A stretch of DNA of 64,000 bases from Patescibacteria group bacterium (lineage in GTDB: Bacteria; Patescibacteriota; Microgenomatia; UBA1400; MFAQ01). This document shows positions 6,819-60,958 of this stretch, one piece after another. The stretch spans positions 92,632 through 156,631 of the forward strand of contig CALRDV010000001.1 of assembly GCA_943355005.1 (NCBI GenBank), read 5' to 3'. Position numbers and translations under genes: made by a program. The notes beneath the pieces were generated by a model, which saw only the letters and a list, made by a program, of their open reading frames with translations, ran no database searches and was not told the origin of the DNA. Positions within the stretch are counted from its first letter, which is position 1; the number at the start of each line of letters is the position of its first letter.

Positions 6819-8614
6819 AGCATCTTAAGAAGCATCTTGTCATTCCGGGCCCTGCCTTGCTAGTAGGCAGGTTGACCCGGAATCCATCTGGATTTGTAAT
6901 TGGTCTTCTGTTGTCCTTATTACTTATCGTACTTGGAATAAACATTTTACTTTCTTATAAGCCCAGAAAAACAATTTCTCTAAAGCCAACCTTCTCCACA
7001 GACTTTGCCTATGACAATCGTACTTTTCTCCACGCCGTAGCCGAAAACAAAAGTATTGGAGGTTCTATTCCGAGTGTCGTTATCCTACCCCACCATCTAC
7101 TTGCTTCCACCATTATTGCAGAAGGCATTTCGATGTTGGCGAGGCAGTCACCTAAAACTATTATTATTCTTTCTCCAAATCATGCGAATACCGGCCAGTG
7201 TGACATTGTTACTTCACGAAATAGTTGGGAGACTCCCTTTGGTCAAATGGATGTTGATCTAGATATTCAAAAGATATTTTTGGATTCCAAGATTATATGT
7301 ACAGACGACACCGCTATGCAGGTGGAGCACGGTGTAGCCGGTCTTTTGCCATTTATTAAATATTATCTACCGAACACTAAAGTTGTTCCTTTGGCACTAA
7401 AGAAAGAAATTGATCCTAATTCGTTCAAAATATTTACTCAAAAATTAATTGAAGTTTCCAAAAACTCTACCATTTTAGCCTCCATCGACTTCTCTCATGG
7501 TCTGTCTCAGAAGGAATCATTAAAGCGGGACAGCCAAACAAAAAGTTTAATTGCCAATCTTAATTATTCGGAATTAGAAAAATTATCTTCTGAGTACATA
7601 GACTCCCCAATATCTCTCATTTCTGCACTAAGTGTAATTAATTCCTATGGTTCCAAGCCCGAATTTCTCGTTCACTCCGACTCGTCAGCATTCAATAGAG
7701 ACACCAAAGATGTCACCTCATATTTTTTGATTTCCGACACACCGTCATTGCGAGGTACTCCGCGGCAATCTACCGGCTCGAACGACTCCTTCACCCTTGT
7801 CTTCGGCGGAGACGTCATGCTTGGTCGTTCTGTGAACACTCGCATGCTCAAATATTCAGATTTCACTTGGCCTTTTTTAAAAATATCAACTTTACTTTCC
7901 CAAGCAGATTTAACTCTGGTGAATCTGGAGTCGCCCTTTCGCTCTGGATGCAAAGAGTCTGATTCTGGAATGGTTTTCTGTGCGGATCCACGGTCCATCG
8001 AAGGTTTACTCGCCGCAGGAGTGGATGTTGTGAATCTGGCCAACAACCATATTGATAACCAGGGAAAAGAGGGGATAACTGAGACTTTGGAGATTTTAAA
8101 TAAGAATAATATTGTCTCTGTGGGGGTGGACCCCCGCGACCACCCAACTCCGTCAAATATTTTCACCATCAAAAACACCAAAATCGCCTTCCTCGGCTTT
8201 GACGATATTCGACCCGTCTCATCGGAAGTTACTTCTGCCACTCCGGAAAATATCAAGACTCAAATCGCTGAAGCCAAAAAGATGTCTGATCTTGTTGTAG
8301 CCACCTTTCACTGGGGAAGCGAATACAGTTCTCACAATTCCGGACAAGAATATTTGGCTCATCTAGCTATTGATTCCGGTGCCGACTTGGTCATTGGTCA
8401 TCACCCCCACTGGGTTCAGGAGTTTGAAGAATACAAAAGCAAGCCCATCTATTATTCTTTGGGAAACTTGGTCTTCGATCAAATGTGGTCCGACAAGACC
8501 AGAAATGGACTAGTTGTCAGATTCACTTACACTGGTTCCGATTTGCTCAACAGAGAAGAATTCCCCATCAAGATTTTTGACTACGGCCAACCGGCTCTGC
8601 TATACAATAAGTAG
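6815..8614 (+). CDS. Membrane-anchored fusion protein: MEMO1/AmmeMemoRadiSam-B-like domain fused to a CapA/PGA_cap metallophosphatase-like domain. The N-terminal tail is encoded by a palindromic repeat.
   Basis: Memo-like 'ILPHHLLAST...LSPNHAN...WETPFGQMDVD...VEHGVAGLLPFIKYYLP'. CapA-like 'FGGDVMLGR...NLESPF...NLANNHIDNQG...HWGSEYS...IGHHPHW'. TM 'FVIGLLLSLLLIVLGINILL'. The ATG overlaps the stop of the upstream gene (ATGA). Confidence 0.6.
   Translation: MKHLKKHLVIPGPALLVGRLTRNPSGFVIGLLLSLLLIVLGINILLSYKPRKTISLKPTFSTDFAYDNRTFLHAVAENKSIGGSIPSVVILPHHLLASTIIAEGISMLARQSPKTIIILSPNHANTGQCDIVTSRNSWETPFGQMDVDLDIQKIFLDSKIICTDDTAMQVEHGVAGLLPFIKYYLPNTKVVPLALKKEIDPNSFKIFTQKLIEVSKNSTILASIDFSHGLSQKESLKRDSQTKSLIANLNYSELEKLSSEYIDSPISLISALSVINSYGSKPEFLVHSDSSAFNRDTKDVTSYFLISDTPSLRGTPRQSTGSNDSFTLVFGGDVMLGRSVNTRMLKYSDFTWPFLKISTLLSQADLTLVNLESPFRSGCKESDSGMVFCADPRSIEGLLAAGVDVVNLANNHIDNQGKEGITETLEILNKNNIVSVGVDPRDHPTPSNIFTIKNTKIAFLGFDDIRPVSSEVTSATPENIKTQIAEAKKMSDLVVATFHWGSEYSSHNSGQEYLAHLAIDSGADLVIGHHPHWVQEFEEYKSKPIYYSLGNLVFDQMWSDKTRNGLVVRFTYTGSDLLNREEFPIKIFDYGQPALLYNK
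6839..6892 (+). repeat. GTCATTCC...GGAATCCATCTGG palindromic repeat with a nested inner palindrome, translated as 'VIPGPALLVGRLTRNPSG' at the N-terminus of the Memo/CapA gene.
   Basis: gtcattccgggccctgccttgctagtaggcaggttgacccggaatccatctgg. Confidence 0.8.
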
Positions 8615-10993: not shown

Positions 10994-11020
10994 AGAACCA
11001 TTATATTACCAAGCATATTG

Positions 11021-11091
11021 TCGGGGTACTCAGAATTGAACTGAGATCGCGCGCACCCCATGCGCGCATACTACCGTTATACTATACCCCG
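11021..11091 (-). tRNA. tRNA-Pro (anticodon GGG), 71 nt, no encoded CCA.
   Basis: Folded by hand: acceptor CGGGGUA/UACCCCG, D-arm GUAU-AACGGUA-GUAU (with G-U pairs), anticodon stem CGCGC/GCGCG with loop AUGGGGU (U33, GGG, G37), T-arm CUCAG-UUCAAUU-CUGAG, discriminator A. Confidence 0.7.
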
Positions 11092-18910: not shown

Positions 18911-18926
18911 AGAACCCTTTCGGGTT
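18911..18926. terminator. Bidirectional hairpin terminator. On the minus strand it reads GAACCCGAAAGGGUUC + UUUUU at the rnpB 3' end; on the plus strand it follows 18297..18902.
   Basis: aaaccaaaaagaaccctttcgggttc. Confidence 0.6.
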
Positions 18927-19236
18927 CCCTAGGACAATAAGCCGGATTCTGTCGTGGAGGAATATCTATCTATGCTCGAGACTTTAGGGACGGAAAAGAC
19001 ACCTTAATCCCAATTCGTCGATTGCAGCAGGGCGGGTTACCACTCCTCTAGGATTTCTCCTAGCGGATCTCCACCTAGCGGTGGAACGTTTCACCTTTAA
19101 TCGTCTCTGTGGCCCTATCGTGCCCTGTAGGTCGCCCCACAAGGAGCCGGGTTTCCCCGGCCACCCTTTCTTTTAGCTGTCCGGACTTTCCTCCCCACTC
19201 TTGCGAGTAGGGCATTCCTCTCGTCCTAGGGAAGCC
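18921..19236 (-). ncRNA. rnpB: RNase P RNA (bacterial type, reduced size, about 316 nt).
   Basis: The minus strand contains P4 5' strand 'GGAGGAAAGUCCGGAC', P4 3' strand 'ACAGAAUCCGGCUUA', 'AAGGUGAAACG', 'GGUAACCCGCC', and a P1 helix UCCCUAGGAC/GUCCUAGGGA. High GC in an AT-rich genome. Confidence 0.8.
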
Positions 19237-28222: not shown

Positions 28223-28648
28223 TCAATGAGTGACACAAACGTTTGACTCGCATGTGCAGAAAACATTTTCTCTAGATGGTGCCTCACCATTGCGCCTTCC
28301 TACCGATTCAGCCTCCTTTTGTATTTTTGCTACATATTCAGGGGTATGACACCCTCCGGTGAACCATATGTATTTACAATCATCATTCTGATTACACGAA
28401 TCTTCATTCTTTTTAACATTGTCTACGTTTTGTTCCGTTCGGGTGATATTTACTCTAGATTTCGCAAGCGAAATAACGAGTCGAATAATTAATGGGCTAT
28501 TCCATCCGATATCACCTTCATTAGGACAGTAACGAGCTGGTTTTCCTGGCGGAGTTTCACAAAAAATTATGCCATAACGGAAAGGTATGGGGGTGAATAA
28601 AAATATGATTATTATGAGAACAAGTGCTAGCGATATTTTCTTAAGCAT
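28223..28648 (-). CDS. Secreted Cys-rich hypothetical protein.
   Basis: Signal/TM 'ISLALVLIIIIFLFTPIPF'; 8 Cys. Confidence 0.45.
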   Translation of the reverse strand: MLKKISLALVLIIIIFLFTPIPFRYGIIFCETPPGKPARYCPNEGDIGWNSPLIIRLVISLAKSRVNITRTEQNVDNVKKNEDSCNQNDDCKYIWFTGGCHTPEYVAKIQKEAESVGRRNGEAPSRENVFCTCESNVCVTH

Positions 28649-28689
28649 AATCTCAGCATATCAGAAATGGGTATATCAAATACCAACTA

Positions 28690-28730
28690 GCTCGCTGGGT
28701 TGGACGACTATCGAACCATTGCCGAAATAG
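28690..28730 (+). repeat. Copy 1 of a ~45-bp direct repeat (consensus about TTGCTCGCTnGrrGGGACGATTTTCGAACTATTTCAGmACAAA).
   Basis: gctcgctgggttggacgactatcgaaccattgccgaaatag. Confidence 0.6.
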
Positions 28731-28770
28731 AATTAAGCTCTGAAGACGCCACTAATGATATAATATAATT

Positions 28771-29007
28771 ATGAAAACAATGACATGTAGCCAACTCGCT
28801 GGAGCTTGCGAAATGAAGTTTAGTGCGGAAACATTTGGTGAAATTGCACAGCTTAGTCAGCAGCACGGCACAGAGATGTTTAAAGCAGGCGACGCACAAC
28901 ATCTATCTGCACAGCAAGAAATGATGAAACTAATGTCCGACCCATCTGCAATGCAAAAATGGATGGATCAAAAACAACAAGAGTTCGACTCGCTCCCGGA
29001 AGATTAG
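28771..29007 (+). CDS. DUF1059-like small protein (MKTMTC...C motif).
   Basis: 'MKTMTCSQLAGACEMKFSAETFGEI...' matches the DUF1059 N-terminal pattern from memory. Confidence 0.55.
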   Translation: MKTMTCSQLAGACEMKFSAETFGEIAQLSQQHGTEMFKAGDAQHLSAQQEMMKLMSDPSAMQKWMDQKQQEFDSLPED

Positions 29008-29015
29008 TTAATTTA

Positions 29016-29062
29016 TTTGCTATCCGGGTGGGACGATTTTCGAACTATTTCAGAACAAAGTT
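29016..29062 (+). repeat. Copy 2 of the ~45-bp direct repeat.
   Basis: ttgctatccgggtgggacgattttcgaactatttcagaacaaagttt. Confidence 0.65.
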
Positions 29063-29066
29063 TTGC

Positions 29067-29495
29067 TTATCTTGTCTGTGAGTAAATCTCCGTTTCAGTC
29101 CAATTCCATGCATACCAGACAATATACAAGGTACACGCAATTTCTATAGCAGAGAAAAACGCGTAATACATTGTTGGCGTTCCGATAAATAACGTCAATG
29201 TTTGGACAGCAGTCATTATTATGCCTGAGATAATGTTTGCCTTGCGATTTGCCTTATTCTTCAATATTCGAGATAAAAGAACCATACCAATCGGAATCTC
29301 CAATAGAAATGCTGCTCCCAATAAAAACCCTGGTGTTAGCTGAATTGTCACATCTTTTATAGGATCCATTACCGTAATAACATCGCAATAAAGATAATTG
29401 AGAAGTGCAAACAACCATAATGTTGAAAGCATTACTTTCTTGTCCATAGATTTTTTACTTGTAATCATTTTTTCTTTCATAAAGAATGCTAACAC
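29067..29495 (-). CDS. Hypothetical 4-TM membrane protein.
   Basis: Hydrophobic helices; flanked on both sides by direct repeats. Confidence 0.5.
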   Translation of the reverse strand: MLAFFMKEKMITSKKSMDKKVMLSTLWLFALLNYLYCDVITVMDPIKDVTIQLTPGFLLGAAFLLEIPIGMVLLSRILKNKANRKANIISGIIMTAVQTLTLFIGTPTMYYAFFSAIEIACTLYIVWYAWNWTETEIYSQTR

Positions 29496-29523
29496 AAACA
29501 GCAGAAGTCAATTTCGAGTCCAA

Positions 29524-29568
29524 ATTGCTCGCTAGAAGGGACGATTTTCGAACTATTTCAGCACAAAA
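29524..29568 (+). repeat. Copy 3 of the ~45-bp direct repeat.
   Basis: attgctcgctagaagggacgattttcgaactatttcagcacaaaa. Confidence 0.65.
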
Positions 29569-30227
29569 TCTTTAAATACTTCAGCTGTGTCTGAAGAGAT
29601 AAACTTATCGGACAAACACAATTTAACATTACATAATTTTACCTCCCCCCTATGTTCTGGAATATTCAATAAAATTTCTCTTTCTTTTAAGACCAATCTC
29701 TCCGTAAATCTACCCAAAAAGCTGTAAGGGAAATTCCAATACTCTTCTTTGATGACTGGTACAAATCCATTCTTGACCCAAATGTCCGTTAAATTTTTTC
29801 TTAAGTTATAGATTTCAACTTCTTGGTCACAGACTCCAATGATTCCCGACTGAGCAAATAACGGATAAATGAATTTGCATGTCAGTCTTCTGTGGGTCAA
29901 AAAAAATGATTCTAAGTCAACAGTCAAACTCGCAAGCCTAGTCTCATCTACAAACTCATTTTCCAACAAAGAAGACTGAAGTGTAATGTGTAATGACTCC
30001 GAAGATTGCCAATATATTTTATTAATCAAAGATTTAGTAATTGCCAATTTTACTTCTCTGAAGATATCTCTAGCAATTCTATTGTCAATAAAAATTTGTA
30101 ACCCAAGAAATCGCTGTTTCCTACCTTTTTCAATATTTAAAACATCCACCCCATCAAGCATCGCTCTATGCTGGTAGTCGACCACTCTTTCCCTCCATTT
30201 ATTTTCCACGGTAACCAATTCTACCAA
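29553..30227 (-). CDS. Hypothetical protein (224 aa).
   Basis: ORF only; no recognised motif. Confidence 0.45.
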   Translation of the reverse strand: MVELVTVENKWRERVVDYQHRAMLDGVDVLNIEKGRKQRFLGLQIFIDNRIARDIFREVKLAITKSLINKIYWQSSESLHITLQSSLLENEFVDETRLASLTVDLESFFLTHRRLTCKFIYPLFAQSGIIGVCDQEVEIYNLRKNLTDIWVKNGFVPVIKEEYWNFPYSFLGRFTERLVLKEREILLNIPEHRGEVKLCNVKLCLSDKFISSDTAEVFKDFVLK

Positions 30228-30565: not shown

Positions 30566-30883
30566 GCATTTATCTTTCTATATAATATATTTATGACCGA
30601 AAATATCCCTCCTGCTCCAACAGAGAAGAATATGGATGAGCTAGACTTGGATCGAGCCTCAAATGAAGGCATGACAGAAACGGAGTGGATAGACGCGGAT
30701 CTGCTTGCCATTTTAATCGAAGACCTTCGAAACGGCCTTACTCCGGGCTAACAGCTACTTACTGTTACTAACAGTTACAGACCCTGACTCCATGGCATCT
30801 TCGGCCATTTGCACCTCTATTACTTCCAGCCCAGGGAGCAATTTTAGGCACGGTCCACATCTACATCGTGATACCATTAGACT

Positions 30884-41965: not shown

Positions 41966-42000
41966 CTTGTCATTCCGGGCTTGACCCGGAATCCATCTGG
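41966..42000 (+). repeat. A-type palindromic repeat just downstream of the zinc-ribbon gene; may act as its terminator.
   Basis: cttgtcattccgggcttgacccggaatccatctgg. Confidence 0.8.
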
Positions 42001-42039
42001 AAATTGTCATATAATTGATTTATATCTATTCCTGTTATC

Positions 42040-42450
42040 ATGAAAAAGAAAAAACTCTCCGGTCTAGATAAGTTGTCCCAAAAATTCACGTACTATATCG
42101 GCACCAACACTTCAATTCTGATTCATACAATTCTATTTGCCGGGATTTTTTCCCTCCGATTCTTTGGTACTACCACGGAAGAAATTTTACTTATCCTTAC
42201 CACTGCCGTTTCTCTCGAAGCCATTTATTTGGCCATCTTCATTCAGATGACCGTCAACCGCACCACCGAAAGTCTTGCCAGCGTAGAGGAAGACATCGAT
42301 GACATTCAAGAGAATATTGATGACATCCAGGAGGATTACAGTGAAGATTCTACCGACGACGTCGATATGATCAAAATTCTTAAGGATATGGAGCTCAGAC
42401 TCAAAGAGCTCCAAACAGACATTTCGGCGCTCCAGAAGAAAAAAGTCTAA
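42040..42450 (+). CDS. DUF1003-like membrane protein with an acidic coiled-coil tail.
   Basis: 'ILLILTTAVSLEAIYLAIFIQMTVNRTTE' resembles the DUF1003 conserved core (...LS.eA....I.MSQNRQ...). Confidence 0.5.
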   Translation: MKKKKLSGLDKLSQKFTYYIGTNTSILIHTILFAGIFSLRFFGTTTEEILLILTTAVSLEAIYLAIFIQMTVNRTTESLASVEEDIDDIQENIDDIQEDYSEDSTDDVDMIKILKDMELRLKELQTDISALQKKKV

Positions 42451-42483
42451 TCTTTTCTATCTTCGAAAACCGTCAAATATTAA

Positions 42484-43302
42484 CTACCTTTGCTTCGTCT
42501 TTCTATTTTTTGCTTCCTCGTAAGAAGATTTCACAGCGCCGCCGGTGGTGCCGATAAGTTTCCCTACAAAGGTGGCAATTGTGTCTGCTCCGGCACCCGC
42601 CATGGCTGGTAGCCACTCTAGAATTGCGTCTCTGGTTTTCTCTTGAGACATTAAGTTAAGAGCAAGCACTCTTCTCTGAGCATCCATTGTTTCCTCACTA
42701 ATTCCGGCATGTTGAGACGCTAAAGCACTTATCGATGGTAGTTGAAATAAGATTACTTGCTTAAACTCCTTTGGTAATGCGTTGTATCGAACCTTGTTCC
42801 CTTTAAAAACTTCGTATGTTATTTGAATAATTTCATCCGCCACTTGCTGAGCGGCCGAGGCAATTTGTTCCTTTCCTAGTTCTCGATAAGTAATTAGTTC
42901 TTCTTTTGCTCTCTCAATCATTTCACTTGTCGTTTTTGGAATCTGATCTTCGGGGGTTCCCAGAGCCACCAGTCTTTTTCTGTACTCCTCCGCTACATAC
43001 GATGGAATTAGTGCATCAAATGCTTCTTGGTCAATATCTACTTCACCCTGTGTCAGAGAGGTCAAACGTGCTGCGATTAGATCTTGTCCTTGTTGCTTTG
43101 ACAATGCAAACTTAATTTCTTTTCCATTTTCTTTAATTAGCATCACATCGTATCCATCAATGTTTTTACCATTCATTCTGGGAATAATAGTTGCGTCACC
43201 ACCAAGCAATGTCTCGACAATTCTTTCTTCATCCATCTTTACAATTGCAGACCCTGTTACCTCGACTTCTTCATTCACTAAGGGCTTTATTTCTGGTATC
43301 AT
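42484..43302 (-). CDS. Hypothetical protein (272 aa).
   Basis: ORF only. Confidence 0.45.
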   Translation of the reverse strand: MIPEIKPLVNEEVEVTGSAIVKMDEERIVETLLGGDATIIPRMNGKNIDGYDVMLIKENGKEIKFALSKQQGQDLIAARLTSLTQGEVDIDQEAFDALIPSYVAEEYRKRLVALGTPEDQIPKTTSEMIERAKEELITYRELGKEQIASAAQQVADEIIQITYEVFKGNKVRYNALPKEFKQVILFQLPSISALASQHAGISEETMDAQRRVLALNLMSQEKTRDAILEWLPAMAGAGADTIATFVGKLIGTTGGAVKSSYEEAKNRKTKQR

Positions 43303-43388
43303 GATATTTTCCTATAACAGTAAAATAATCAGTTATAAGTTATGTGAATAGTACGCTTCTGATTTTTTTCTGTCAACCCTCAATTTAT

Positions 43389-43435
43389 CCGTCATTGCGA
43401 GCCATGTACTCATGGTGTGGCAATCTCACTCCACC
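43389..43435 (+). repeat. B-type palindromic repeat.
   Basis: ccgtcattgcgagccatgtactcatggtgtggcaatctcactccacc. Confidence 0.75.
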
Positions 43436-43440
43436 TTACC

Positions 43441-45093
43441 TCACCATTTCTCCCTCAGATGACTCATCGCAAATTTCAAATCTCCTCTTACTTTCTTTCT
43501 GGGATTAAAAATTCCTTCGGGGTCAAAAATATTTTTAACTTGTTCGAATAGCGCCACCATCTTTTCCCCAAACATATCTTTTAAGTAAGGCGTACGTATC
43601 AATCCATCGTTATGTTCTCCTGTAGTTGACCCTCCATTGTCGATAATTATTTTATAGACTTTTTGGGCTATCTCCGGAATCGCAGCTCGCACCTTTGGAT
43701 CCTTAATGTTAACTATTGGGATAATGTGAAAGTTCCCATCACCCACATGTCCAGCTACAGTAAAAATAAATTCCGGGTGCTCAGACAATATTTGAGTTAC
43801 TTGAGGCAAGACATTTTGAATTTTTTGCGGATCTATCACAAAATCATCAATAAAAGGCACTGTGTGTTTTTCTCGTATTTTGCTTCTGAGTAAGTTGAAA
43901 CTTTCTCTCCGAACCAGCCAGTATTTTTCCTCTTGGTTTTCCACCGCCACCTTTGTTTTTACTTTTAGTGGCTTGAGCATTTCGAGTAGTTCAGATACCT
44001 TTCCACTCAATTCATTCACATCATTCCCCGTAAAATCGACTTGAAGGACCAGCTTTGGTAGTCGTCCCATAAACATCATCATAAAGGCAGGTAAGAATGC
44101 CAGGCCAGCCTGAATCATGCCAAAAATACCCAGTTGCTTGGCAAACTCAGGTAGATATCTCAGAGCCAGTTTCAAAGTGTTGTCGTCATAAGACTCGAAA
44201 CTTTCGGGACCAAGAGGCAGTATTTTTTTAATAATATCACCCAAATTATCCATGTTCGGAAGGAAGACCACTACCATCTGCCTATGTTTCTGTATTGGTA
44301 CTAGTCCAATTTCAGCGCTGGTCATTAATCCCAATGTTCCTTGAGCACCCACCCACAATTTAGTCAGGTCAAATATTCCTGTCTCTTCGTTCCATATATC
44401 CCAAAGGTTATAGCCTGCCGAATTCTTGAGGACTGTTGGCCGTGCGTTTTGGATAACTTCTTTATTTTCAGTCACAATCTTGAACATACTTCGATATAAA
44501 TTTCCCTCAAAATCATTTTGACCCATCTTAGCGTCCAATTCTATCTTACTTATAGGTTTTATTTCATATGTTTTTCCGTCTGCTAGAACCGCTTCTATTT
44601 TACGGACGAATTTATCTGTTTTACCGTATTTAAGACTTTTTTCTCCTCCGGAATTATTATTTACAATACCTCCAATACCGCAAATTGATTTAGATGCTGG
44701 ATAAGAAGGGAATAATAGTCCTTTTTTTAAGGTCTCGGCTTCAAAGTCTCGGTAAAAAACTCCAGGTTCAGTTACTGCACTACTTTCACCAACCACCGGC
44801 AGATGATTAAAATATTTTGAAAATTCCACGATTATCGAATCATTCAGCGGTCCGCCACTCATATCTGTTCCTGCAGATCTGCTGGTAATAGATATTCTTG
44901 GATTAGATTTCTTGTATTTGTTTACAAAATTCACTAATTTTTGAATATCTTCTGTGTCTTTCGGAAAAACTACAACTTCTGGTTTTACCTCGAAGATACT
45001 TGCGTCGTGACTGTAGAGTTCAATCGTTTCCTGATTTATCTCTATATCTCCGGACAAAAGACTTTTAAGCTCTATTATTAGATTATTATCCAT
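43441..45093 (-). CDS. FAD-linked oxidase (GlcD / D-lactate dehydrogenase-like).
   Basis: FAD_binding_4 'RSAGTDMSGGPL'; C-terminal 4Fe-less FAD-oxidase_C fold 'GHVGDGNFHI'. Confidence 0.75.
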   Translation of the reverse strand: MDNNLIIELKSLLSGDIEINQETIELYSHDASIFEVKPEVVVFPKDTEDIQKLVNFVNKYKKSNPRISITSRSAGTDMSGGPLNDSIIVEFSKYFNHLPVVGESSAVTEPGVFYRDFEAETLKKGLLFPSYPASKSICGIGGIVNNNSGGEKSLKYGKTDKFVRKIEAVLADGKTYEIKPISKIELDAKMGQNDFEGNLYRSMFKIVTENKEVIQNARPTVLKNSAGYNLWDIWNEETGIFDLTKLWVGAQGTLGLMTSAEIGLVPIQKHRQMVVVFLPNMDNLGDIIKKILPLGPESFESYDDNTLKLALRYLPEFAKQLGIFGMIQAGLAFLPAFMMMFMGRLPKLVLQVDFTGNDVNELSGKVSELLEMLKPLKVKTKVAVENQEEKYWLVRRESFNLLRSKIREKHTVPFIDDFVIDPQKIQNVLPQVTQILSEHPEFIFTVAGHVGDGNFHIIPIVNIKDPKVRAAIPEIAQKVYKIIIDNGGSTTGEHNDGLIRTPYLKDMFGEKMVALFEQVKNIFDPEGIFNPRKKVRGDLKFAMSHLREKW

Positions 45094-46080
45094 TTATTTT
45101 CTTGTTATTACTTTTTTAACTGCCTCCATAATCGCTGTTTTTCCCATACCGTATTTTTCAATAATATCTTTAGGACTTCCGGACTCGGCAAAAGTATTTT
45201 GAAGTCCAATAAATTCCATGGGGATTGGTTTTTTAGCTACAAAAAGTTCAGCCAAAGCTCCACCAAGCCCACCCGCCACTTGGTGATCCTCGACACTGAT
45301 TGCGGCTCCGGTTTTGTTTACGAGCTCCAAGATTCCGATTTCATCTAGTGGCTTTATCGAAGCTACATTGACTACGTTTACCATAATTCCTGCCGACTCC
45401 AGCTCTTTAGCTGCCAGTAAACCGTAATAAAGTTCGTGGCCGGTTGCAAAGATTGTCACTTGTGGGTTTTCTGAAATCCAAAATTCCTGCACTTTTCCGT
45501 CATACGGCGTTTCCTCCGTGGTCATTACTACTGATTTGTCTCTGCTATATCTTAAGTACACTGGACCTTTGTATTCACCTGCCCACGTAGTTATCTTTTG
45601 AGATTCAATACTGTCACAAGGGACCAGCACAGTCATCTTGGGCCAGCAGCGGGTAATGGCAATATCTTCAGTCGCTTGGTGTGTGCATCCATCAGGACCT
45701 GTCATTATGCCACTATGGTGACCGGCTACTTTGACGTTTGCTTGGTTGTAGACTGCGGTGGTTCGAATCGTTTCCCAGTTTTTACCGGGAGAAAAAGTTG
45801 CATAAGAAGAAATAAACGGCACCTTACCGGCGATTGCCAGTCCTGCTGCAATTGCAGCCATGTTTTGTTCTGCTACTCCGCATTCAAAAAATCTATCGGG
45901 GAATTTTTGCGCAAATTCTTCGGTTCTGGTGGACTCAGATAAATCTGCCGTCAGCACCACTACATTTTGGTCTTTCTCACCCAAGCTGACGATAGCCTTT
46001 CCAAAGCCTTCTCTGGTTGCTTTTTTTTCGACATCCTCATCGAAAATTTTACTGTTTAGTTTTAGATTTGGGTTAAGCAT
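45094..46080 (-). CDS. Transketolase, C-terminal (pyrimidine-binding) subunit.
   Basis: 'GHHSGIMTGPDGCTHQATEDIAITRCWPKMTVLVPCD'. Confidence 0.9.
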   Translation of the reverse strand: MLNPNLKLNSKIFDEDVEKKATREGFGKAIVSLGEKDQNVVVLTADLSESTRTEEFAQKFPDRFFECGVAEQNMAAIAAGLAIAGKVPFISSYATFSPGKNWETIRTTAVYNQANVKVAGHHSGIMTGPDGCTHQATEDIAITRCWPKMTVLVPCDSIESQKITTWAGEYKGPVYLRYSRDKSVVMTTEETPYDGKVQEFWISENPQVTIFATGHELYYGLLAAKELESAGIMVNVVNVASIKPLDEIGILELVNKTGAAISVEDHQVAGGLGGALAELFVAKKPIPMEFIGLQNTFAESGSPKDIIEKYGMGKTAIMEAVKKVITRK

Positions 46081-46081
46081 T

Positions 46082-46975
46082 TTATTGGTGTTCGCTTTCT
46101 ATTTTGCCTTGTAATGTTCTTAATTCGGCTAAAGCAATTTTGGCTTGATCGCCTTTGGCAGGGGATCCCGGAACTTCGACAACGTCGGGTGGGTTGCCGT
46201 GCCAAAGGTAATTTCTTTCCATAAAATCGACCCCTTTCCCTGGTATGGTGTGAGCGATAATCACTGTTGGCTTATTGAAAATTGCTCTAGCTTCTCGAAC
46301 AGTCTCCTCAAAAGCATGAATATTATTTCCGTCTACTTCCAAAACGTACCAGCCAAAAGATTCATATTTGTCCTTAAAAGGCTCAAGTGGCATTATATCT
46401 TCCGTAAAGCCATCAATCTGTATATTATTGCGGTCCACAATTACCGTCAGATTATTTATTTTATTTTTCCCTGCGTACATTATGGCCTCCCAAGTATTTC
46501 CCTCCTGATGTTCACCATCTGAAGCAATGCAATAAATATATTGCTTATTCTTGTCTAGTTTAGCCGCCAGGGCCAGCCCAATAGCTTGAGAAATTCCTTC
46601 ACCAAGGGGTCCCGATGAAGTTTCCAATCCAGGTAAATAATGTCTGGAGGGATGTCCTTGAAGTCTGGAATTAATTTTTCTTAAGGTTTTCAGTTCTTCA
46701 ATGGGGAAATAACCGGCCATCGCCATCGTTACGTACTGTATTGGGCAAATATGCCCATTAGAAAGGACCAGTTTATCTCTATCATTCCACTCCGGGTTTT
46801 TTGGATCATGTTTGAGGATGTGGAAGTAAAAGGCTACAAAAATATCTGCCATTCCGAGAGGTCCTGCACTATGTCCGGATCCGGCTTCTACCAAAGTTTC
46901 AATTACCAGTTGTCTGGCTTTTACAGCCAAGTCGTTTAATTCAAATAGTTTTGCCTCGGTTAGTTCTGTATCCAT
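46082..46975 (-). CDS. Transketolase, N-terminal (TPP-binding) subunit.
   Basis: 'GHSAGPLGMADIF', 'GDGEHQEGNTWEA'; split-tkt arrangement. Confidence 0.9.
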   Translation of the reverse strand: MDTELTEAKLFELNDLAVKARQLVIETLVEAGSGHSAGPLGMADIFVAFYFHILKHDPKNPEWNDRDKLVLSNGHICPIQYVTMAMAGYFPIEELKTLRKINSRLQGHPSRHYLPGLETSSGPLGEGISQAIGLALAAKLDKNKQYIYCIASDGEHQEGNTWEAIMYAGKNKINNLTVIVDRNNIQIDGFTEDIMPLEPFKDKYESFGWYVLEVDGNNIHAFEETVREARAIFNKPTVIIAHTIPGKGVDFMERNYLWHGNPPDVVEVPGSPAKGDQAKIALAELRTLQGKIESEHQ

Positions 46976-46979
46976 ATTT

Positions 46980-48251
46980 TTATATTTTTAGAATCATAAT
47001 TAAATCGGCCACGTTCGATCCTAGTTTTTCGGTGAAGATTCCGTCACCGGTTTTTTCGAAGAACGCTGAGCTGTCATCGTTGTCCAAAAACTTCTGAGGA
47101 TCCAGCTTCAATTTTTCCGATTTTTCCCAAGTGTCTTTGTCTCCTAGAGCACCTCCAAATTTGTAATAATCTACCCCATCGGAATCAAAAGATAATATCA
47201 GTGTATCATCCGGCAGGGGTAATGAAGCCAGAACTAGAGTTTGGTTTCTTCCCCCGTTTCCTTTACCAGTCACTTTTATTGTTGTTTCACCTCCGGCCAG
47301 CAAAATTTTTCCTGGAGGTGTTTGTTCTATCAGTTTCTTTCCCAATTTCTTAGCTTCTCCTTCAATTCTGTCGGAGAAAATAGCTGCTTTGTAGCCTAGA
47401 TTTTTTGCTTCTTCTTGCATGGCAGTCAGAGCTGTCATGTTGCTAAGTATCATAATATTTAAGACATTCTCAAAATATTTTTCGTCCTTTGGCAGCTCAG
47501 TCAGTGCACTATCCGGCACTAGTGAAGCCGAAATTTTATATTTATTCAAGATAGACAGAGCTTTTTTGGATGTGGATCTATCTCTTACTGTTGGTCCAGA
47601 CGCGATGACAGACAAGTCATTCCCAGGTACATCAGAAAATATTAGATTTACGATTTTAGCCGGATAAAGATGTTTGGCTAACCCTCCACCTTTTACTTTG
47701 GATAAATGCTTCCGTACGATATTCATCTCGGTAATATTTGCTCCGGAATTGAGAAGTTTGGAGAAGGTGGCTGTTAGTTTGGGAAGATTCAGTTTATAAG
47801 GCGCTTCAAAAAGAGCCGACCCTCCACCGCAGACCACGATAAGTACCAAATCTTTACTATTCAAATCCTTTATTTCTTTCAGCACCCTCTCGGTAAAATC
47901 AACATTATCCTTTGAGGGTAGTGGATGAGTTCCTAAGGTAAACGAAACTTTTTTGAATTTTGTCGGGGTAGTATCAATCACAAAGCCCTGAGTCAGCTTC
48001 TCGCCTAACAATTTTTCCAAATAGAGCGAAATTCCTCCCGACCCCTTCCCAAAGCCAATCAAGAAAACCCTTTCAAATTTATTCAGATGAATCTTTTTGC
48101 TTTTTATGAAGAGTGTCTCCCCGTCGACGGACAAGGATTCGGCCAGTACCTTATTGGGTTGAATTGCTTCAAGTCCGGCGTTTAAGATTTTTAACGCGAC
48201 TGTCCTACGGTCAGATGTTTTTAAACTTGGTAAGTTTTTGATTATGCTCAC
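46980..48251 (-). CDS. Glycerate 2-kinase (MOFRL family).
   Basis: 'LIGFGKGSGG', 'LLAGGETTIKVTGKGNGGRNQ'. Confidence 0.7.
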   Translation of the reverse strand: MSIIKNLPSLKTSDRRTVALKILNAGLEAIQPNKVLAESLSVDGETLFIKSKKIHLNKFERVFLIGFGKGSGGISLYLEKLLGEKLTQGFVIDTTPTKFKKVSFTLGTHPLPSKDNVDFTERVLKEIKDLNSKDLVLIVVCGGGSALFEAPYKLNLPKLTATFSKLLNSGANITEMNIVRKHLSKVKGGGLAKHLYPAKIVNLIFSDVPGNDLSVIASGPTVRDRSTSKKALSILNKYKISASLVPDSALTELPKDEKYFENVLNIMILSNMTALTAMQEEAKNLGYKAAIFSDRIEGEAKKLGKKLIEQTPPGKILLAGGETTIKVTGKGNGGRNQTLVLASLPLPDDTLILSFDSDGVDYYKFGGALGDKDTWEKSEKLKLDPQKFLDNDDSSAFFEKTGDGIFTEKLGSNVADLIMILKI

Positions 48252-48275
48252 AAATTCAGTTTATCATCTCTGGCT

Positions 48276-48460
48276 CGTGTCATTCTGAGCGAGTACTCGA
48301 GTCGAAGAATCTCCCTCGCCGGCAGGCGAATCTCCCTCCACCCACCCTCGTCATTCCGGGCTTGACCCGGAATCCAGTCCGCCCACCGTCATTTCGACCG
48401 AGTGAAACGAGTGGAGAAAACTCCTTCCACCAAGCATTCGTCATTGCGGGGTTTGAGATA
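48276..48460 (+). repeat. Dense intergenic cluster of at least four palindromic repeats (GTCATTCTGAGCGAG..., A-type, GTCATTTCGACCGAG..., truncated B) with CTCGCCGGCAGGCG / CTCCCTCCACC sub-motifs.
   Basis: cgtgtcattctgagcgagtactcgagtcgaagaatc...ctcgtcattccgggcttgacccggaatccagtcc...ccgtcatttcgaccgagtgaaacgagtggag...ttcgtcattgcgggg. Confidence 0.8.
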
Positions 48461-48634
48461 TTTTAGGTTTAACAATAGATCCCTAGTGGATTTATTGTTA
48501 TACAAAACAAAATAAAATATCACAAACATGCCATAGCCTGTTTCGTAACGAACCTGGCTAGGCCGGGTTTACAATGCGCGGCAATCTAGCTTATCAACCA
48601 CCTCACCCGTTCGATTTTCTCAGTTCCCTCCACT

Positions 48635-50545
48635 TCAGTCTAATATCTTCCTCTTCATCTCCTCATACCCCCTAGTTAAGTAAACTCCATTTTGAGCTTC
48701 TCTGAGGTCAAACCCAAAGGCTCTGCGGCTAACGGCAATTATTGGAGGAGCCTGAATTCTCTTAAAGATATTTATTTTGTATTGTTTCCATTTATGTTCC
48801 AAATCAGCTACAAAAGCTTCGGCAGTCGGGAAATATTTATCTACCAGTCCTGTTTCAATTTTTAGTTCATTCTCCAGTTCACCTTTGGTATACAAGTTCA
48901 AGATATATTCAGGGTCCCGTCTAAATTCTACGAACGATCGGAAAAGTCTGTCGTGATATGGGTAAAGGATTGGGTCTCCTAGTCCTTTAGTCACATCTTG
49001 CTTCTCGGAAAGTTCGGCTGAGGGAATCACATTCAATATTTCAGCCGGAATTATTTCTTTCCCTGCCAATTTATTCATATATCTGGCCAGTTGGTACACT
49101 TCACTCTTATAAATATCGGCAATAGGTGCTATGGCTCCATTTACATCTCCATAAAGTGTGCACCAGCCAATAGTTGTCTCGGTCTTGTTTCCGTTATTGG
49201 TGAATACGGCCCCCAGACAAGCAGCAATACCGGCCAGTACCCTGCTACCCCTATCTCTTGCTTGGATATTTTCCAAACTGTACTCACTCACTTCGACATC
49301 CGTTATTTGTTTTTCCTCATCTTGTCTTTCAAATTTCAGCGCCTTCAGTTCTTTCACGGTTAAATCTACCGATTCTTGAATAGGGAAGACTCCGTAATTT
49401 ATTCCAAGATTTTGAGCTAGTACTAAGGCCGCATTTTTTGTCAGATCAGAATTAAATCTGGATGGCATATTTACGGCATATACATTTTCTTTACCGATTG
49501 CCGCCACCAGTAGACATGCACTCACTGCCGAGTCTACTCCACCGGACAGTCCCAATACTGCCTTGCTCATTCTGTTTCCTTCGAAAAATCTCTTCATTCC
49601 GTAAACCAGTCCGTTGTACAGCTCCTCCACATCCCTTTCATCTGTTAGCTCGTCATTCCTGGCTTGACCAGGAATCCATCCAATTAACTCCTTAGAGTTA
49701 AGATCGATATCTACCTCCACTGTTTCCTCTACATAATCTCTCGCTTGTTTGACTACGTTTCCCGATTTGTCATATGCTGTAGAGTTCCCGTCAAAAAGGA
49801 AAATATTTTTGCCGTTATTCTGAATCCCAGTATTATTACAATATAAGAATGGTACGGAGACTTTTTCCAAAAGTGATTTTATGACTCTATGTCTCTTGTT
49901 ATTTTTTCTCCAAGTCCAAGGAGAGCAAGACAAATTCACAATTACATCAGCTCCATTTTCCGCTAATATCTTTGTCGGATTATCGGCGTAATCATCGCTC
50001 CACATATCCTCACAGAGAATAGCACCAATATTAATTTCCTCACCTCGGACAGTTACCTTGAAGGGCTTCAGAAATTCATTTAGTGGTTTTCCCATTTCGT
50101 TTGCGAGTCTTAGCATGGAGTAGAAGTGCCTCTCATCATCAAACTCTCTATACTTTGGCATCAAGGTCTTAAAAGTGTGTCCTTCAAAAGCCCCATTGCT
50201 TAGCCATTCACCGTTTTGGGCCAAATACACCGCATTATATTTACGAATACGGCCATCCTCACCCTTTTTATTTTTGTCTACAAACACATTACCCCAGATT
50301 ACAGCAATTCCTTGGCTGGCCTCCAATACATCCTGGTTATAATCCATCAAGTCATTTACAAACGACTCATTTTCCCACTCATCACCCAGAAGATAGCCCG
50401 GTACTACCATTTCCGAAAATAGAATCACATCTACGTTTCTTCTCTTGGCTACTTCAATTTCTCTAATCATCTTGGCTACGTTCAGATCAGGTCTTCCGGC
50501 GACCACTTCAATCTGTGCCAAAGCAAACTTCACTGTTTTATTCAT
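48635..50545 (-). CDS. nadE: Glutamine-dependent NAD+ synthetase (CN-hydrolase + NadE domains), with an in-frame palindromic-repeat insertion.
   Basis: CN hydrolase 'ILFSEMVVPGY...AILCEDMW'; PP-loop 'LGLSGGVDSAV'; inserted peptide 'GWIPGQARNDEL'. Confidence 0.9.
   Translation of the reverse strand: MNKTVKFALAQIEVVAGRPDLNVAKMIREIEVAKRRNVDVILFSEMVVPGYLLGDEWENESFVNDLMDYNQDVLEASQGIAVIWGNVFVDKNKKGEDGRIRKYNAVYLAQNGEWLSNGAFEGHTFKTLMPKYREFDDERHFYSMLRLANEMGKPLNEFLKPFKVTVRGEEINIGAILCEDMWSDDYADNPTKILAENGADVIVNLSCSPWTWRKNNKRHRVIKSLLEKVSVPFLYCNNTGIQNNGKNIFLFDGNSTAYDKSGNVVKQARDYVEETVEVDIDLNSKELIGWIPGQARNDELTDERDVEELYNGLVYGMKRFFEGNRMSKAVLGLSGGVDSAVSACLLVAAIGKENVYAVNMPSRFNSDLTKNAALVLAQNLGINYGVFPIQESVDLTVKELKALKFERQDEEKQITDVEVSEYSLENIQARDRGSRVLAGIAACLGAVFTNNGNKTETTIGWCTLYGDVNGAIAPIADIYKSEVYQLARYMNKLAGKEIIPAEILNVIPSAELSEKQDVTKGLGDPILYPYHDRLFRSFVEFRRDPEYILNLYTKGELENELKIETGLVDKYFPTAEAFVADLEHKWKQYKINIFKRIQAPPIIAVSRRAFGFDLREAQNGVYLTRGYEEMKRKILD
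49651..49683 (+). repeat. A-type variant repeat inserted in-frame in nadE.
   Basis: cgtcattcctggcttgaccaggaatccatccaa. Confidence 0.85.
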
Positions 50546-51068
50546 TATTCTTTTTAAATTCCTGATAATATTTTTTCGCTAATGGAATCACTCTCTGATC
50601 CAGCAATTTTTCGAGCATTTCTTGGTCATTCTTATCAAGTGCGCTTCTGACATTTGTTGCTGTTATCTCCGGGCTTTTTTTTCTGTCTACCAAAACTACA
50701 GTTTCAAAACGCTGTGCCAATATCTCCAAATCTTCTTTAGATCCACCATAAAAGACAAACTTGGTCTGTTGCTCCTTCTGGATTTTTTCTATGTTATCCA
50801 GCCATTCTTCATTTGTACTGCCGTCAAAGTATACCAGTCCTGGCTTCCCATCAGGTAAAGGGATTGTTTTTATCTCGGGGAAAACCGCCTTAACCATCTC
50901 GGCTCTTTGCTCGTAGGTATAAGGTGTTCGTTCATTCAGAGTATTTGATGAGCCTATCATTATCAGACAATTTTCCATCCCATTTACACGAATCATTTCC
51001 TCAACAATAGAGGCATGACCCCTTTGAAAAGGGGAGAATCGGCCTAAAAATACAGCAGTATCATTCAT
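50538..51068 (-). CDS. Archaeal-type nicotinamide-nucleotide adenylyltransferase (NadM-like).
   Basis: 'GRFSPFQRGH' (HxGH) and 'IGSSN' blocks. Confidence 0.7.
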   Translation of the reverse strand: MNDTAVFLGRFSPFQRGHASIVEEMIRVNGMENCLIMIGSSNTLNERTPYTYEQRAEMVKAVFPEIKTIPLPDGKPGLVYFDGSTNEEWLDNIEKIQKEQQTKFVFYGGSKEDLEILAQRFETVVLVDRKKSPEITATNVRSALDKNDQEMLEKLLDQRVIPLAKKYYQEFKKNNE

Positions 51069-51106
51069 AAATCAGTCAATTAGTAAAGATAGTGTATATA
51101 ATACAC

Positions 51107-51736
51107 CTACGACACATCCCGTGTCAAGACCCCAGAAATCTGTGAATATACAACCTCTTCCTCAGGCATTGCATCAAGCAGAACAAGCTCCCATCCAGGC
51201 TGATTTTTGATTACATTCAGTCTTTCTTCGAGAAGTAGGTTAAATTTCTCCAAACGGCTTGCTACTCCTTCTTCTGTGTCATCTGCTCGTTTCCTGGCGT
51301 TTTTTCCTCGAACTAGTCGATCGTAAGTTTCTTCCTCAGGAATATTTAGATAAATTACCGTCATTGGCAGATCAAGCCCCGCTTGTTCCAGCATGGCTTG
51401 AAATTCTATGGTTTCTTCCAATGTTCTGAGTCCACCATCCAATATCAGCCCGTCTTGCACATCAGGCCGACTAAATCTCTCGACCAGAATTCTAAGTAAC
51501 GTCTCTCCGGCCAGGTATCTACCTTCGGCGAACATGGCTCTGCATTCATCACCAAGTTCTCCAGGATCATTAGCTGCCAAGTCTCTTATAGTATCGCCGG
51601 TAGTTACATACGGGAGTCCCGTGTCTTCAGCCAGAAGAAGAGCGTGGGTGGTTTTACCTGAGCCTTCGGGTCCGATAAAAGTAATAATCCTTTTTCCAAC
51701 AAACTCACACTCTTTACTTTTTAATTTTTCAGTCAT
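51107..51736 (-). CDS. adk: Adenylate kinase.
   Basis: 'GPEGSGKTT', 'TTGDTIRD', 'ILDGGLRT', 'RKRADDTEEGVASRLEKF'. Confidence 0.8.
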   Translation of the reverse strand: MTEKLKSKECEFVGKRIITFIGPEGSGKTTHALLLAEDTGLPYVTTGDTIRDLAANDPGELGDECRAMFAEGRYLAGETLLRILVERFSRPDVQDGLILDGGLRTLEETIEFQAMLEQAGLDLPMTVIYLNIPEEETYDRLVRGKNARKRADDTEEGVASRLEKFNLLLEERLNVIKNQPGWELVLLDAMPEEEVVYSQISGVLTRDVS

Positions 51737-51785
51737 AGAAAAATACTATGTCTAGGTAAGTCAAAACACAACCCTCAATTACCAT

Positions 51786-51927
51786 CCGTCATTGCGAGGT
51801 ACTCCGTGGCAATCTAGCCTATCAGCCACCTGTCATTCCTCACACTATCTCTGTCATTCCAGCGAAGGCTGGAATCCATCAAATAACTCAACTTTTGTCA
51901 TTCCGGGCTTGACCCGGAATCCAGTCT
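51786..51927 (+). repeat. Cluster of 3-4 palindromic repeats (B-type, partial, A-type, A-type). The last overlaps the C-terminus and stop of the GIY-YIG gene.
   Basis: ccgtcattgcgaggtactccgtggcaatctagcc...ctgtcattccagcgaaggctggaatccatc...ttgtcattccgggcttgacccggaatccagtc. Confidence 0.8.
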
Positions 51928-52169
51928 TTTAAAAGTAATTCTTTTTTTGTCTTCGCCCAAGTCCGTATTTCCCTTTCTCTCCTCATGGCATCCCCTCTGG
52001 TCGGCTGTTCCTCCGAATACACCAGCTCTACATTGTCAAAACATCTTACATATCTGGCCGACCTAACAGTCTTACTTAGATGTTCCTTCAAACGCCTTTC
52101 CAAGTTATTTGTCTGACCGACATACAAAGTGTTCGATGAAGTCCGCAAAATATATACCACAAAGCTCAT
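51888..52169 (-). CDS. Small GIY-YIG nuclease-family protein (UPF0213/YhbQ-like) with a repeat-encoded C-terminal tail.
   Basis: 'VVYILRTSSNTLYVGQTNNLERRLKEH'; last 13 aa 'KDWIPGQARNDKS' come from the repeat. Confidence 0.7.
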   Translation of the reverse strand: MSFVVYILRTSSNTLYVGQTNNLERRLKEHLSKTVRSARYVRCFDNVELVYSEEQPTRGDAMRREREIRTWAKTKKELLLKDWIPGQARNDKS

Positions 52170-52513
52170 AGCTGAAGCAGTTGCATTTGAGAATTGATTT
52201 GCTGATTCACTGTATCTATCAGAGATTTAGAGATCCAAATCCCAATAACAAGTGAAAGTATTGTAAGTATCAAAGATATCCATCCATATAGTTTTGATTT
52301 TTCATCTTCGGTTTTTATATATCTAAAAGTAAGCAAAATTCCAAGTGGTGGTAGAAGAGTACTCAAAATAAATAACCATAGCAGGGAACCAAAAGTGTTG
52401 GATACCGTTTTATCTTTAATTTTTCTTCCACAGCTTGGACAGAAGAAATCTTGACTAGATATTGGCTGAGAACAATTTTTACAAACCAACTGGTTGATTA
52501 TTTGAGGCTCCAT
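52166..52513 (-). CDS. Zinc-ribbon + 2-TM membrane protein.
   Basis: 'CKNCSQ...CPSCG' followed by two hydrophobic helices. Confidence 0.5.
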   Translation of the reverse strand: MEPQIINQLVCKNCSQPISSQDFFCPSCGRKIKDKTVSNTFGSLLWLFILSTLLPPLGILLTFRYIKTEDEKSKLYGWISLILTILSLVIGIWISKSLIDTVNQQINSQMQLLQL

Positions 52514-52536
52514 TTCTTCATTTTAACATTCATGGC

Positions 52537-52571
52537 AAAAAACACCCCCATCCTGCAATGGGGGTGTTTTT
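52537..52571 (-). terminator. Rho-independent terminator (minus strand).
   Basis: aaaaaacacccccatcctgcaatgggggtgtttttg. Confidence 0.7.
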
Positions 52572-60954: not shown

Positions 60955-60958
60955 TGCT

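Follow-up and report, generated by a model that had tools for sequence, protein, structure and literature searches.

A direct repeat between small genes of a Patescibacteria contig is homologous to the 3' ends of large serine recombinase genes

What are the three direct repeats that lie at the boundaries of small genes in a 64-kb stretch of a Patescibacteria genome (assembly GCA_943355005.1, contig CALRDV010000001.1, positions 92,632 to 156,631 of the forward strand; the whole stretch is hereafter called the window), and what kind of enzyme, if any, put them there? An earlier note on this DNA had likened the ~45-nt element, with one repeat per small gene, to the gene-cassette arrays of integrons or of other site-specific recombination systems. 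Here, the element was analyzed in the window and in contigs of other bacteria. Results revealed that it belongs to a family that forms arrays in many contigs, and that it is homologous to, and contiguous with, the 3' ends of large serine recombinase (LSR) genes. We consider it probable that the repeats are P' half-sites of an LSR-family attachment site, situated at the edges of inserted DNA.

The repeat in the window and its family

The window forms part of a 223-kb metagenomic contig (ENA ERZ27280309, k141_147785), located through an SRAP neighbor gene. A repeat search of the window found one direct-repeat family with three copies of an element of ~45 nt, confirming the number and the direct orientation reported earlier, with ends that differ by 1 to 6 nt from those given at the time. 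The copies are listed here with E values from an independent profile, built from 86 copies in other contigs and including no window sequence.

28688..28735, plus strand: repeat copy 1, TAGCTCGC-TGGGTT-GGACGACTATCGAAC-CATT; independent profile E 1.1e-7
29017..29064, plus strand: repeat copy 2, TTGCTATC-CGGGTG-GGACGATTTTCGAAC-TATT; independent profile E 3.1e-8
29525..29572, plus strand: repeat copy 3, TTGCTCGC-TAGAAG-GGACGATTTTCGAAC-TATT; independent profile E 8e-10

This profile recovered exactly these three sites, and nowhere else in the 64 kb was there a match with E under 0.05. Over 48 nt, copies 2 and 3 show 81% identity, and they have in common the exact 24-mer GGGACGATTTTCGAACTATTTCAG, which was matched twice compared with 0.00 matches expected from 100 shuffles; copy 1 is the most diverged (67%). 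A 19-nt degenerate core, GGACGAYTWTCGAACYATT, is matched exactly by all three copies, with 0.14 matches expected even when 3 mismatches are allowed. The family consensus is G[CT][TG]CGC-N6-GGACGATTTTCGAAC-NATT, consisting of an inner and an outer box. Copy 3 is nearest to this consensus (frame translation LLARRDDFRTISAQNL, then a stop), copy 1 has an intact inner box (GCTCGC) and two substitutions in the outer one (frame translation LAGLDDYRTIAEIEL...), and copy 2 has a perfect outer box and a degenerate inner one (GCTATC; frame translation LLSGWDDFRTISEQS...).

The open reading frame (ORF) positions bear out the placement of the copies at gene boundaries. Copy 1 lies between the start of a minus-strand 141-aa ORF (28648) and the start of a plus-strand 78-aa ORF (28771), copy 2 between the stop of the latter (29007) and the stop of a minus-strand 142-aa ORF (29067), and copy 3 between the start of the 142-aa ORF and a 224-aa ORF, whose last codons and stop (29553) it overlaps on the opposite strand.

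Other contigs were searched with the core. A scan for exact matches, with one genome per species, returned 31 loci, about one-third of which were chance matches inside ordinary genes, while ~18 to 20 were non-coding and carried the upstream G[CT][TG]CGC box. A metagenome scan added 70 further loci; there were no matches in viral contigs and none in phage and plasmid records, and a phage or plasmid origin was therefore set aside. Some of the non-coding loci belong to Patescibacteria, others to contigs assigned by binning to Bacteroidales, Phycisphaerales, Anaerolineaceae, and further groups (at phylum level, bins of Bacteroidota, Planctomycetota, and Chloroflexota are represented, among others), with some doubtful bin labels: locus L005, for instance, is labelled Pseudomonadales yet shares genes with a Collierbacteria contig.

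Within these loci, the profile search detected additional, more diverged copies beside the first one, nearly always in direct orientation. At least two copies were present in 27 of 70 non-redundant non-coding loci, and 41 of the 46 adjacent pairs were direct, with a spacing of 226 to 3118 bp (median, 701 bp). The DNA between copies (cargo) was heterogeneous, including NUDIX (twice), GNAT, glyoxalase/VOC, SDR, an ANT-like nucleotidyltransferase, IrrE with a helix-turn-helix (HTH) protein, IS200 tnpA, and DUF6326, and its ORFs ran opposite to the repeat in 46 cases and along with it in 25. In L018, each unit ran from the element through a promoter-like sequence and a gene (or tRNA-Ala) to a terminator-like hairpin. 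The scans of other contigs thus yielded direct arrays around small, variable accessory genes. An all-versus-all BLASTP comparison of flanking ORFs found no conserved neighbor across the loci except the 224-aa gene, which recurs with copy 3 in L005: the homologue there has 79% protein identity and is followed by the repeat at the same place after the stop codon, and the neighbors on both sides are unrelated to those in the window. One repeat-plus-gene unit is thus present in two different genomic contexts.

Continuity with recombinase genes and the position of the junction

Read in frame, the element translates as (L)LA(x)(x)DDFRT(I)(x)W, and a subset of copies keeps an open tail of 27 to 30 aa, DDFRTIDWxxEYPYPxxxLxxIxxLL followed by a stop codon; the core nucleotides are kept even in copies with a broken reading frame. 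In L061, a longer ORF reads straight into the element and its tail, and this ORF is 63% identical (E 2e-64) to residues 342 to 498 of the protein encoded by L102, an intact 523-aa enzyme with Resolvase, Recombinase, and Zn_ribbon_recom domains. An LSR ORF in L103 also runs into the element. Searches for proteins with the tail returned 84 entries with a word-indexed method and 258 with an exhaustive HMMER search using a tail profile, nearly all of them orphan ORFs of 32 to 160 aa that end in the tail; a Pfam search of the tail peptides gave no match. The longer proteins in this set (P0199, P0204, P0203, P0127, P0141, P0186, P0138, and P0150) are diverged LSR C-terminal regions (P0199 against the L102 enzyme, E 2e-15) that continue natively through ...FEPxK...KGKxxxFxxxxPxW into LAL(x)(D/N)DFRT...LL and the stop. 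Since such ORFs run natively into the tail, the latter is an ancestral part of the LSR family. The physical link to LSRs is found in relatives (L061, L103, and ORFs of the P0199/P0204 type); the window itself has no LSR in its 64 kb.

The boundary of the element was located by comparing loci with different upstream DNA. L061, with an LSR gene upstream, and L071, with an unrelated gene upstream, have identical element and downstream DNA; identity begins at TGCTCGC, and the two diverge immediately 5' of it. Likewise, many database ORFs share an identical tail behind differing upstream sequences that diverge at the same codon, and close homologues of the L061 LSR without the tail depart from it at the equivalent position, ending in peptides such as ALLHGQDSNLQPID or RVGLEPTT. 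In L102 and L113, the LSR end peptides are the antisense translation of tRNA-Asn, the 3' end of which abuts the recombinase gene. The integrated LSR gene is thus joined to its target (P|B'), and the displaced tail must be situated at the opposite insert end (B|P'). In L002 and L006, element copies occur 2 to 4 kb from tRNA-Asn with only cargo between and no LSR, and in L006 the cargo abuts the tRNA gene directly, with no LSR remnant. L061 carries a first LSR gene with its tail (LSR-A), ~3.6 kb of cargo, and a second LSR gene, so that LSR elements of its family sit head-to-tail with the element at the boundary. The insertion targets found in relatives are the 3' end of tRNA-Asn and resident copies of the element.

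The two kinds of arm differ in a constant way. The antisense tRNA-Asn arms read GCTC-N12-TCGAAC in all four loci compared (L102, L113, L002, and L006), whereas the element reads GCTC-N17-TCGAAC in the three window copies (a distance of 21 nt from GCTC to TCGAAC in copy 1) and in L023, L061, L103, and L104, which places its outer motif 5 bp further out. In serine integrases, the zinc-ribbon-domain motif of attB half-sites has been shown to be 5 bp nearer the crossover than that of attP half-sites (PMC3783163). The shift observed here fits this rule, with the element corresponding to a P' (attP-type) arm and the tRNA to the matching B' arm; the repeats likewise have the layout of such a half-site, ~25 bp long, with an inner box and a zinc-ribbon-domain motif displaced 5 bp outward.

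Serine recombinases act on dyad sites that bind a dimer, and partners for such dyads were recognized in a few loci. The P arm of L113 contains a mirrored TTCGAA ~17 nt from the junction and, joined to the element, would make a ~52-bp site. L023 has, at 2398-2454 (= L041), a full dyad of 56 bp, GTTCGAAAATCGACC-N6-AGTATT-AA-GCTCGC-N6-GGACGATTTTCGAAC, in which two element-type arms surround a central AA. This dyad occupies a 73-nt spacer that separates two ordinary genes of the same orientation, outside any LSR gene, and may represent an intact attP-like site or a target site. Dyad partners were clear only in L023 and in the L113 P arm, and loose in L058; inspection of the P arms of L061, L102, and L103 found no dyad symmetry.

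As a separate observation, the exact 19-nt core also occurs, at aa ~395 of 507-521, within the coiled-coil region of a different, distantly related LSR (...SIEADDFRTIKKECE...) in the Chitinophagaceae-type contigs L008, L011, L012, L027, and L088. We treat this occurrence as a coincidence, but it may reflect shared motif ancestry.

Probable attachment half-sites, related systems, and alternative explanations

The P' half-site reading, in which each repeat is a copy of the right half of the attachment site of LSR-encoding integrative elements, can be put as a mechanism. The attP site would lie inside the last ~35 codons of the recombinase gene, where GCTCGC-N6-GGACGATTTTCGAAC would supply the inner and the outer protein-binding box; being situated in the 3' end of the gene, this half-site would therefore also encode the C-terminal tail of the enzyme (...W LAL x DDFRT x x W ... 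LL, stop). An LSR would bind and cut at the element, with strand exchange just 5' of GCTCGC, joining whatever DNA lies upstream to the half-site, so that each insertion would leave one copy at the left edge of the insert. The window would then carry three such left-edge copies in direct orientation, delimiting two one-gene inserts (with the 78-aa ORF and the DUF6326 gene) and a third unit with the 224-aa gene, the whole representing a recombinase-less tandem array built by successive insertions on a serine-recombinase site. The one-gene units would each have been inserted singly and in trans, and would not be what is left of larger elements. The array in the window may still be active, and its partly degenerate copies may remain substrates.

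Several points weigh against this reading. Canonical attP x attB integration neither makes long direct repeats nor regenerates its target, and the build-up of an array therefore needs an extra assumption: growth could have proceeded either by recombination at X|P' sites (compare CcrAB, which uses several att pairings) or by decay of tandem full-length elements. No left half-site is recognizable at the window copies and at most array copies, and copies 1 and 2 in the window are each degenerate in one box. Neither an LSR nor another recombinase was found in the 64-kb window, nor within a few kilobases around most arrays, and full-length LSRs that still have the tail are rare in databases, where only partial ORFs were found. 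The nearly 100% conservation of the core is inflated by ascertainment, since the loci were retrieved by exact match to it. Finally, the earlier note expected gene content to vary between repeat pairs across strains; contig L115 (1.6 kb), from a second sample, has the identical arrangement at 99.9% identity, with no polymorphism seen.

The system most similar to the array in the window is the staphylococcal cassette chromosome (SCC), exemplified by SCCmec, together with the Enterococcus cassette chromosome. The LSRs encoded by ccrAB use ~50-bp direct-repeat att sites at the 3' end of a gene (rlmH), the repeats arise because incoming DNA carries a copy of that 3' end, units occur in tandem (composite and psi-SCC islands), and recombinase-less remnants persist (PMC6222049). 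Likewise, the three copies in the window are direct repeats homologous to a gene 3' end that flank the units. Unlike in SCC, the repeat derives from the recombinase gene's own 3' end (and/or a tRNA-Asn-like arm) rather than from rlmH, the units measure 0.3 to 2 kb and often hold one gene instead of spanning tens of kilobases, and the hosts are Patescibacteria and other uncultured phyla without a ccr-type gene pair. There is no ccr gene in the window, which lacks an LSR gene of any kind; rlmH was not specifically searched for. The element also resembles the sites of phage-type serine integrases (A118/LI, Bxb1, and phiC31), in the half-site with inner and outer boxes, in the 5-bp outward shift of attP (PMC3783163), and in the Resolvase, Recombinase, and Zn_ribbon_recom domain set of the enzyme. 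The differences are that attP is here embedded in the coding 3' end of the integrase, so that integration swaps the C-terminal tail, and that most chromosomal copies are lone half-sites in direct arrays, which are not the product of canonical attP x attB recombination.

LSR att-site repeats that bound tandem inserts are known from SCC; what is unusual here is an attP in the recombinase's own 3' end, the very small units, and the broad distribution. In mycobacteriophage integration-dependent immunity, attP likewise lies within a coding 3' end and integration changes the C-terminus of the encoded protein, but the integrases there are of the tyrosine class, it is the repressor gene that is altered, and arrays of leftover tails are not known. 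In the literature library that we searched, there was no description of the element string or of serine-recombinase cassette arrays in Patescibacteria, a result that shows absence from this library only.

A more far-reaching version of the P' half-site reading, which we advance tentatively as a possibility that falls short of probable, would make the arrays a counterpart of integrons: LSRs acting in trans would insert and excise self-expressed one-gene cassettes, each with a single P'-type half-site. The half-site would double as a spare C-terminal tail for a recombinase, and, through insertion at resident site copies or at tRNA-Asn, Patescibacteria and several further phyla would acquire exchangeable accessory-gene arrays. 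The likeness to integrons, and to clusters of attC sites lacking integron-integrases (CALINs), lies in the small, mostly single-gene accessory units with one site repeat each and often no recombinase beside them; the differences are a site conserved in sequence and without the attC hairpin, genes in either orientation with their own promoters, and an association with a serine recombinase instead of IntI.

The chief alternative is that the repeats are inert debris, that is, LSR 3' ends surviving as pseudogene fragments after full-size elements had repeatedly integrated and decayed, and then shuffled by homologous recombination or deletion. The small genes would then be leftovers of larger islands, and the repeats would have no function and would never have been the edges of mobile one-gene cassettes. 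We regard this as unlikely while giving it real weight: the tails in the window are cut by early stops, the imperfect boxes of copies 1 and 2 and the lack of a nearby LSR also fit it, LSR remnants of varied length precede the element in L104, P0040, P0061, and P0068, and tandem full-size elements do exist (L061). On the other hand, the boundary is always set at the same nucleotide position 5' of GCTCGC behind dozens of unrelated upstream sequences, and the core is conserved at the nucleotide level despite a broken frame; moreover, units of 226 to 600 bp are the rule rather than the exception, and the cargo of L006 meets tRNA-Asn without any recombinase remnant. A further possibility is that the element is a diverged antisense tRNA-Asn-like 3' fragment, duplicated at each integration of islands with tyrosine integrases. 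It does resemble the antisense 3' end of tRNA-Asn (GCTC...GGA.TCGAAC), its profile weakly matches the tRNA-Asn region of L113, the arrays of L002 and L006 lie near that gene, and tRNA 3'-end-like fragments precede copies in L023 and L014. We nevertheless hold this origin to be very unlikely, given that no tRNA was found at any copy by ARAGORN or Rfam, that the 5-nt insertion relative to the tRNA arm is constant, that LSR genes of diverged sequence continue directly and in frame into the element, and that tyrosine integrases were found neither in the window nor in the first 31 loci (for the later loci, XerD was the only query).

Slighter still is the chance that the element is a regulatory or structural motif, such as an operator, a promoter or terminator module, or a small RNA at gene boundaries. 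Copies are intergenic, elsewhere they often follow terminator-like hairpins and precede promoters, and copy 1 lies upstream of a TATAAT-like run before the 78-aa ORF. The folds of both strands of the three copies, however, had z-scores of -0.45 to +0.58 against shuffled sequences, in line with the weak hairpin potential noted earlier; Rfam had no match at the copies either at the gathering threshold or at E<=10, sigma-70 and terminator scans gave nothing specific there, orientation relative to neighboring genes is inconsistent in the window, L018 has a separate TTGACA-17-TAGACT promoter-like sequence downstream of the element, the extra copies in the surveyed loci adjoin the first one in arrays, and the coding homology to LSR tails would be left unexplained. 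A generic 3'-untranslated-region or terminator motif, which the earlier note had named as the finding that would overturn its idea, is likewise at odds with only three copies in 64 kb, no structure, and variable flanking content. The least probable explanation is an integron-type cassette array in the strict sense. An attC site, being an imperfect palindrome (R''-L''...L'-R'), forms a hairpin as a single strand, and an integron array is headed by the tyrosine recombinase IntI and attI, which are absent in CALINs, its cassettes being mostly promoterless and co-oriented. One repeat per small gene with no integrase nearby would be CALIN-like, and the GNAT, NUDIX, VOC, and HTH cargo of related arrays resembles the content of integron cassettes. 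Nevertheless, the copies show no imperfect palindrome (z-scores near 0) and no R''/R' core pair, the element is conserved across phyla in sequence whereas attC is conserved in structure, and genes are in mixed orientation with their own promoters. Using IntI1 and XerD as queries, a phmmer search of limited sensitivity against ORFs of at least 80 aa from the window and the first 31 loci found no IntI/Xer tyrosine recombinase at E<1, and no Hin-like protein is encoded in the 64-kb window. Thus, the earlier remark that no integrase lies nearby holds for Xer, IntI, and Hin-like proteins and LSRs alike, whereas its suggestion to look for a tyrosine recombinase probably named the wrong class, the linked enzyme being a serine recombinase. 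Of the cassette-like array, the part that stands is the idea of site-specific-recombination repeats punctuating small genes, given the arrays in unrelated contigs and the homology to att-bearing LSR 3' ends; the integron/attC comparison does not, in view of the missing palindrome, the missing IntI/Xer, and the mixed orientation.

Other candidates were tried and dropped. Owing to the negative fold, Rfam, ARAGORN, promoter/terminator, and recombinase results, there is no support for an integron attC or a terminator, nor for a riboswitch-like RNA or a tRNA fragment: the folds are no better than those of shuffled sequence, Rfam matched no known RNA family at the copies, and ARAGORN found no tRNA or tmRNA at the copies, the two tRNAs of the window being unrelated. 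The 5' end of a group II intron inserted after terminators was considered for the GTGCG-like starts and the upstream terminators and was rejected, as no Rfam intron domains occurred in 17 loci and the units are far too short. Comparison by eye with consensus sequences gave no convincing match and no symmetry for a Tn3-family/Tn402 inverted repeat, a dif/Xer site, or a sigma-54/sigma-70 promoter, and the repeat search found no inverted repeat spanning the window copies. A dispersed repeat of the repetitive extragenic palindromic (REP) or miniature inverted-repeat transposable element (MITE) type does not fit exactly three clustered copies in 64 kb without a hairpin or terminal inverted repeats; unlike dispersed REP/MITE, the copies in other contigs also cluster in one array.

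If the P' half-site reading is correct, a motif of ~30 nt would flag the insertion boundaries of widespread serine-recombinase elements in poorly known bacteria, and cassette-like stacking of accessory genes would have a second, integron-independent route. Hundreds of orphan "hypothetical proteins" of 30 to 100 aa in metagenome catalogues would be displaced recombinase tails. With an embedded attP, integration would rewrite the C-terminus of the recombinase, possibly a built-in switch for directionality or stability. In practical terms, the family would be a source of LSRs whose attP arm is defined and spans phyla and whose attB is tRNA-Asn.

Genes in and around the array, and further observations

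The ORFs that flank the repeat copies in the window, with the three cargo genes in mixed orientation (+, -, -), are the following.

28223..28648, minus strand: 141-aa ORF, Cys-rich, with a signal/transmembrane-like N-terminus; left flank of the array, context only
28771..29007, plus strand: 78-aa ORF, cargo between copies 1 and 2; annotated with a length of 75 aa on the source contig
29067..29495, minus strand: 142-aa ORF, DUF6326 membrane protein (PF19851, 1.7e-22), cargo between copies 2 and 3
29553..30227, minus strand: 224-aa ORF, cargo right of copy 3; no Pfam match

The 78-aa ORF, which has an AT-rich TATAAT-like run directly upstream of its ATG, had been described as a DUF1059 gene; this assignment is not supported, as neither DUF1059 nor any other Pfam family matched it even at E<=10. 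The DUF6326 gene is antisense to the repeats and is called elsewhere as 126 or 137 aa. A homologue with 74% identity in L116/L117 is not flanked by repeats, and the sole other occurrence is in L115, with the arrangement already described. The 224-aa protein has a weak PADLOC match to DpdI (E 0.0015, residues 7 to 74), and its SLHITL motif, judged by eye, recalls 2H phosphoesterases. In L005, a Rfam group I intron match (77.5 bits, 4360-4558, within the segment 3994-4558) directly follows an HNH-endonuclease-like ORF and immediately precedes the 224-aa homologue; the window has no such intron.

Several arrays in other contigs have cargo of note. L018 (1258-2389) contains two identical tandem IS200-like (Y1_Tnp) genes inside the array, with the same GC-rich hairpin before each. 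At 1822-7090, L014 (= L042, L047, and L099) carries ten tRNA genes on one strand as five pairs ~0.9 to 1.6 kb apart, and these pairs adjoin two or three element copies, each preceded by a tRNA-3'-end-like fragment. Defense-like genes also occur: a PycTM-family gene (Pfam) is cargo beside an element copy in L111 (7383-7880), a cyclase-like gene paired with a transmembrane gene, recognized by eye only, is cargo in L061 (2962-4189), and restriction-modification genes lie near element copies in L102 and L103.

A second short repeat, ATATAATATAWTTATGA, occurs in the window at 28758-28774 and 30580-30596. It comprises a TATAAT-like run that ends directly in ATG and is found where the 78-aa gene and a small internal ORF (MTENIPP...) begin, which suggests leaderless or very-short-leader transcripts in this organism. 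On a larger scale, nearly all large ORFs are on the plus strand in positions 1-26000 of the window and nearly all on the minus strand in 42000-62000. The repeat array lies in the mixed zone between these convergent gene blocks, where GC skew has no clear switch; the zone could be a replication-terminus-like region. Housekeeping RNA genes unrelated to the array are a bacterial class A RNase P RNA at 18922-19232 (minus strand, 119.7 bits), tRNA-Pro(GGG) at 11020-11091 (minus strand), and tRNA-Gln(CTG) at 59056-59128 (minus strand).

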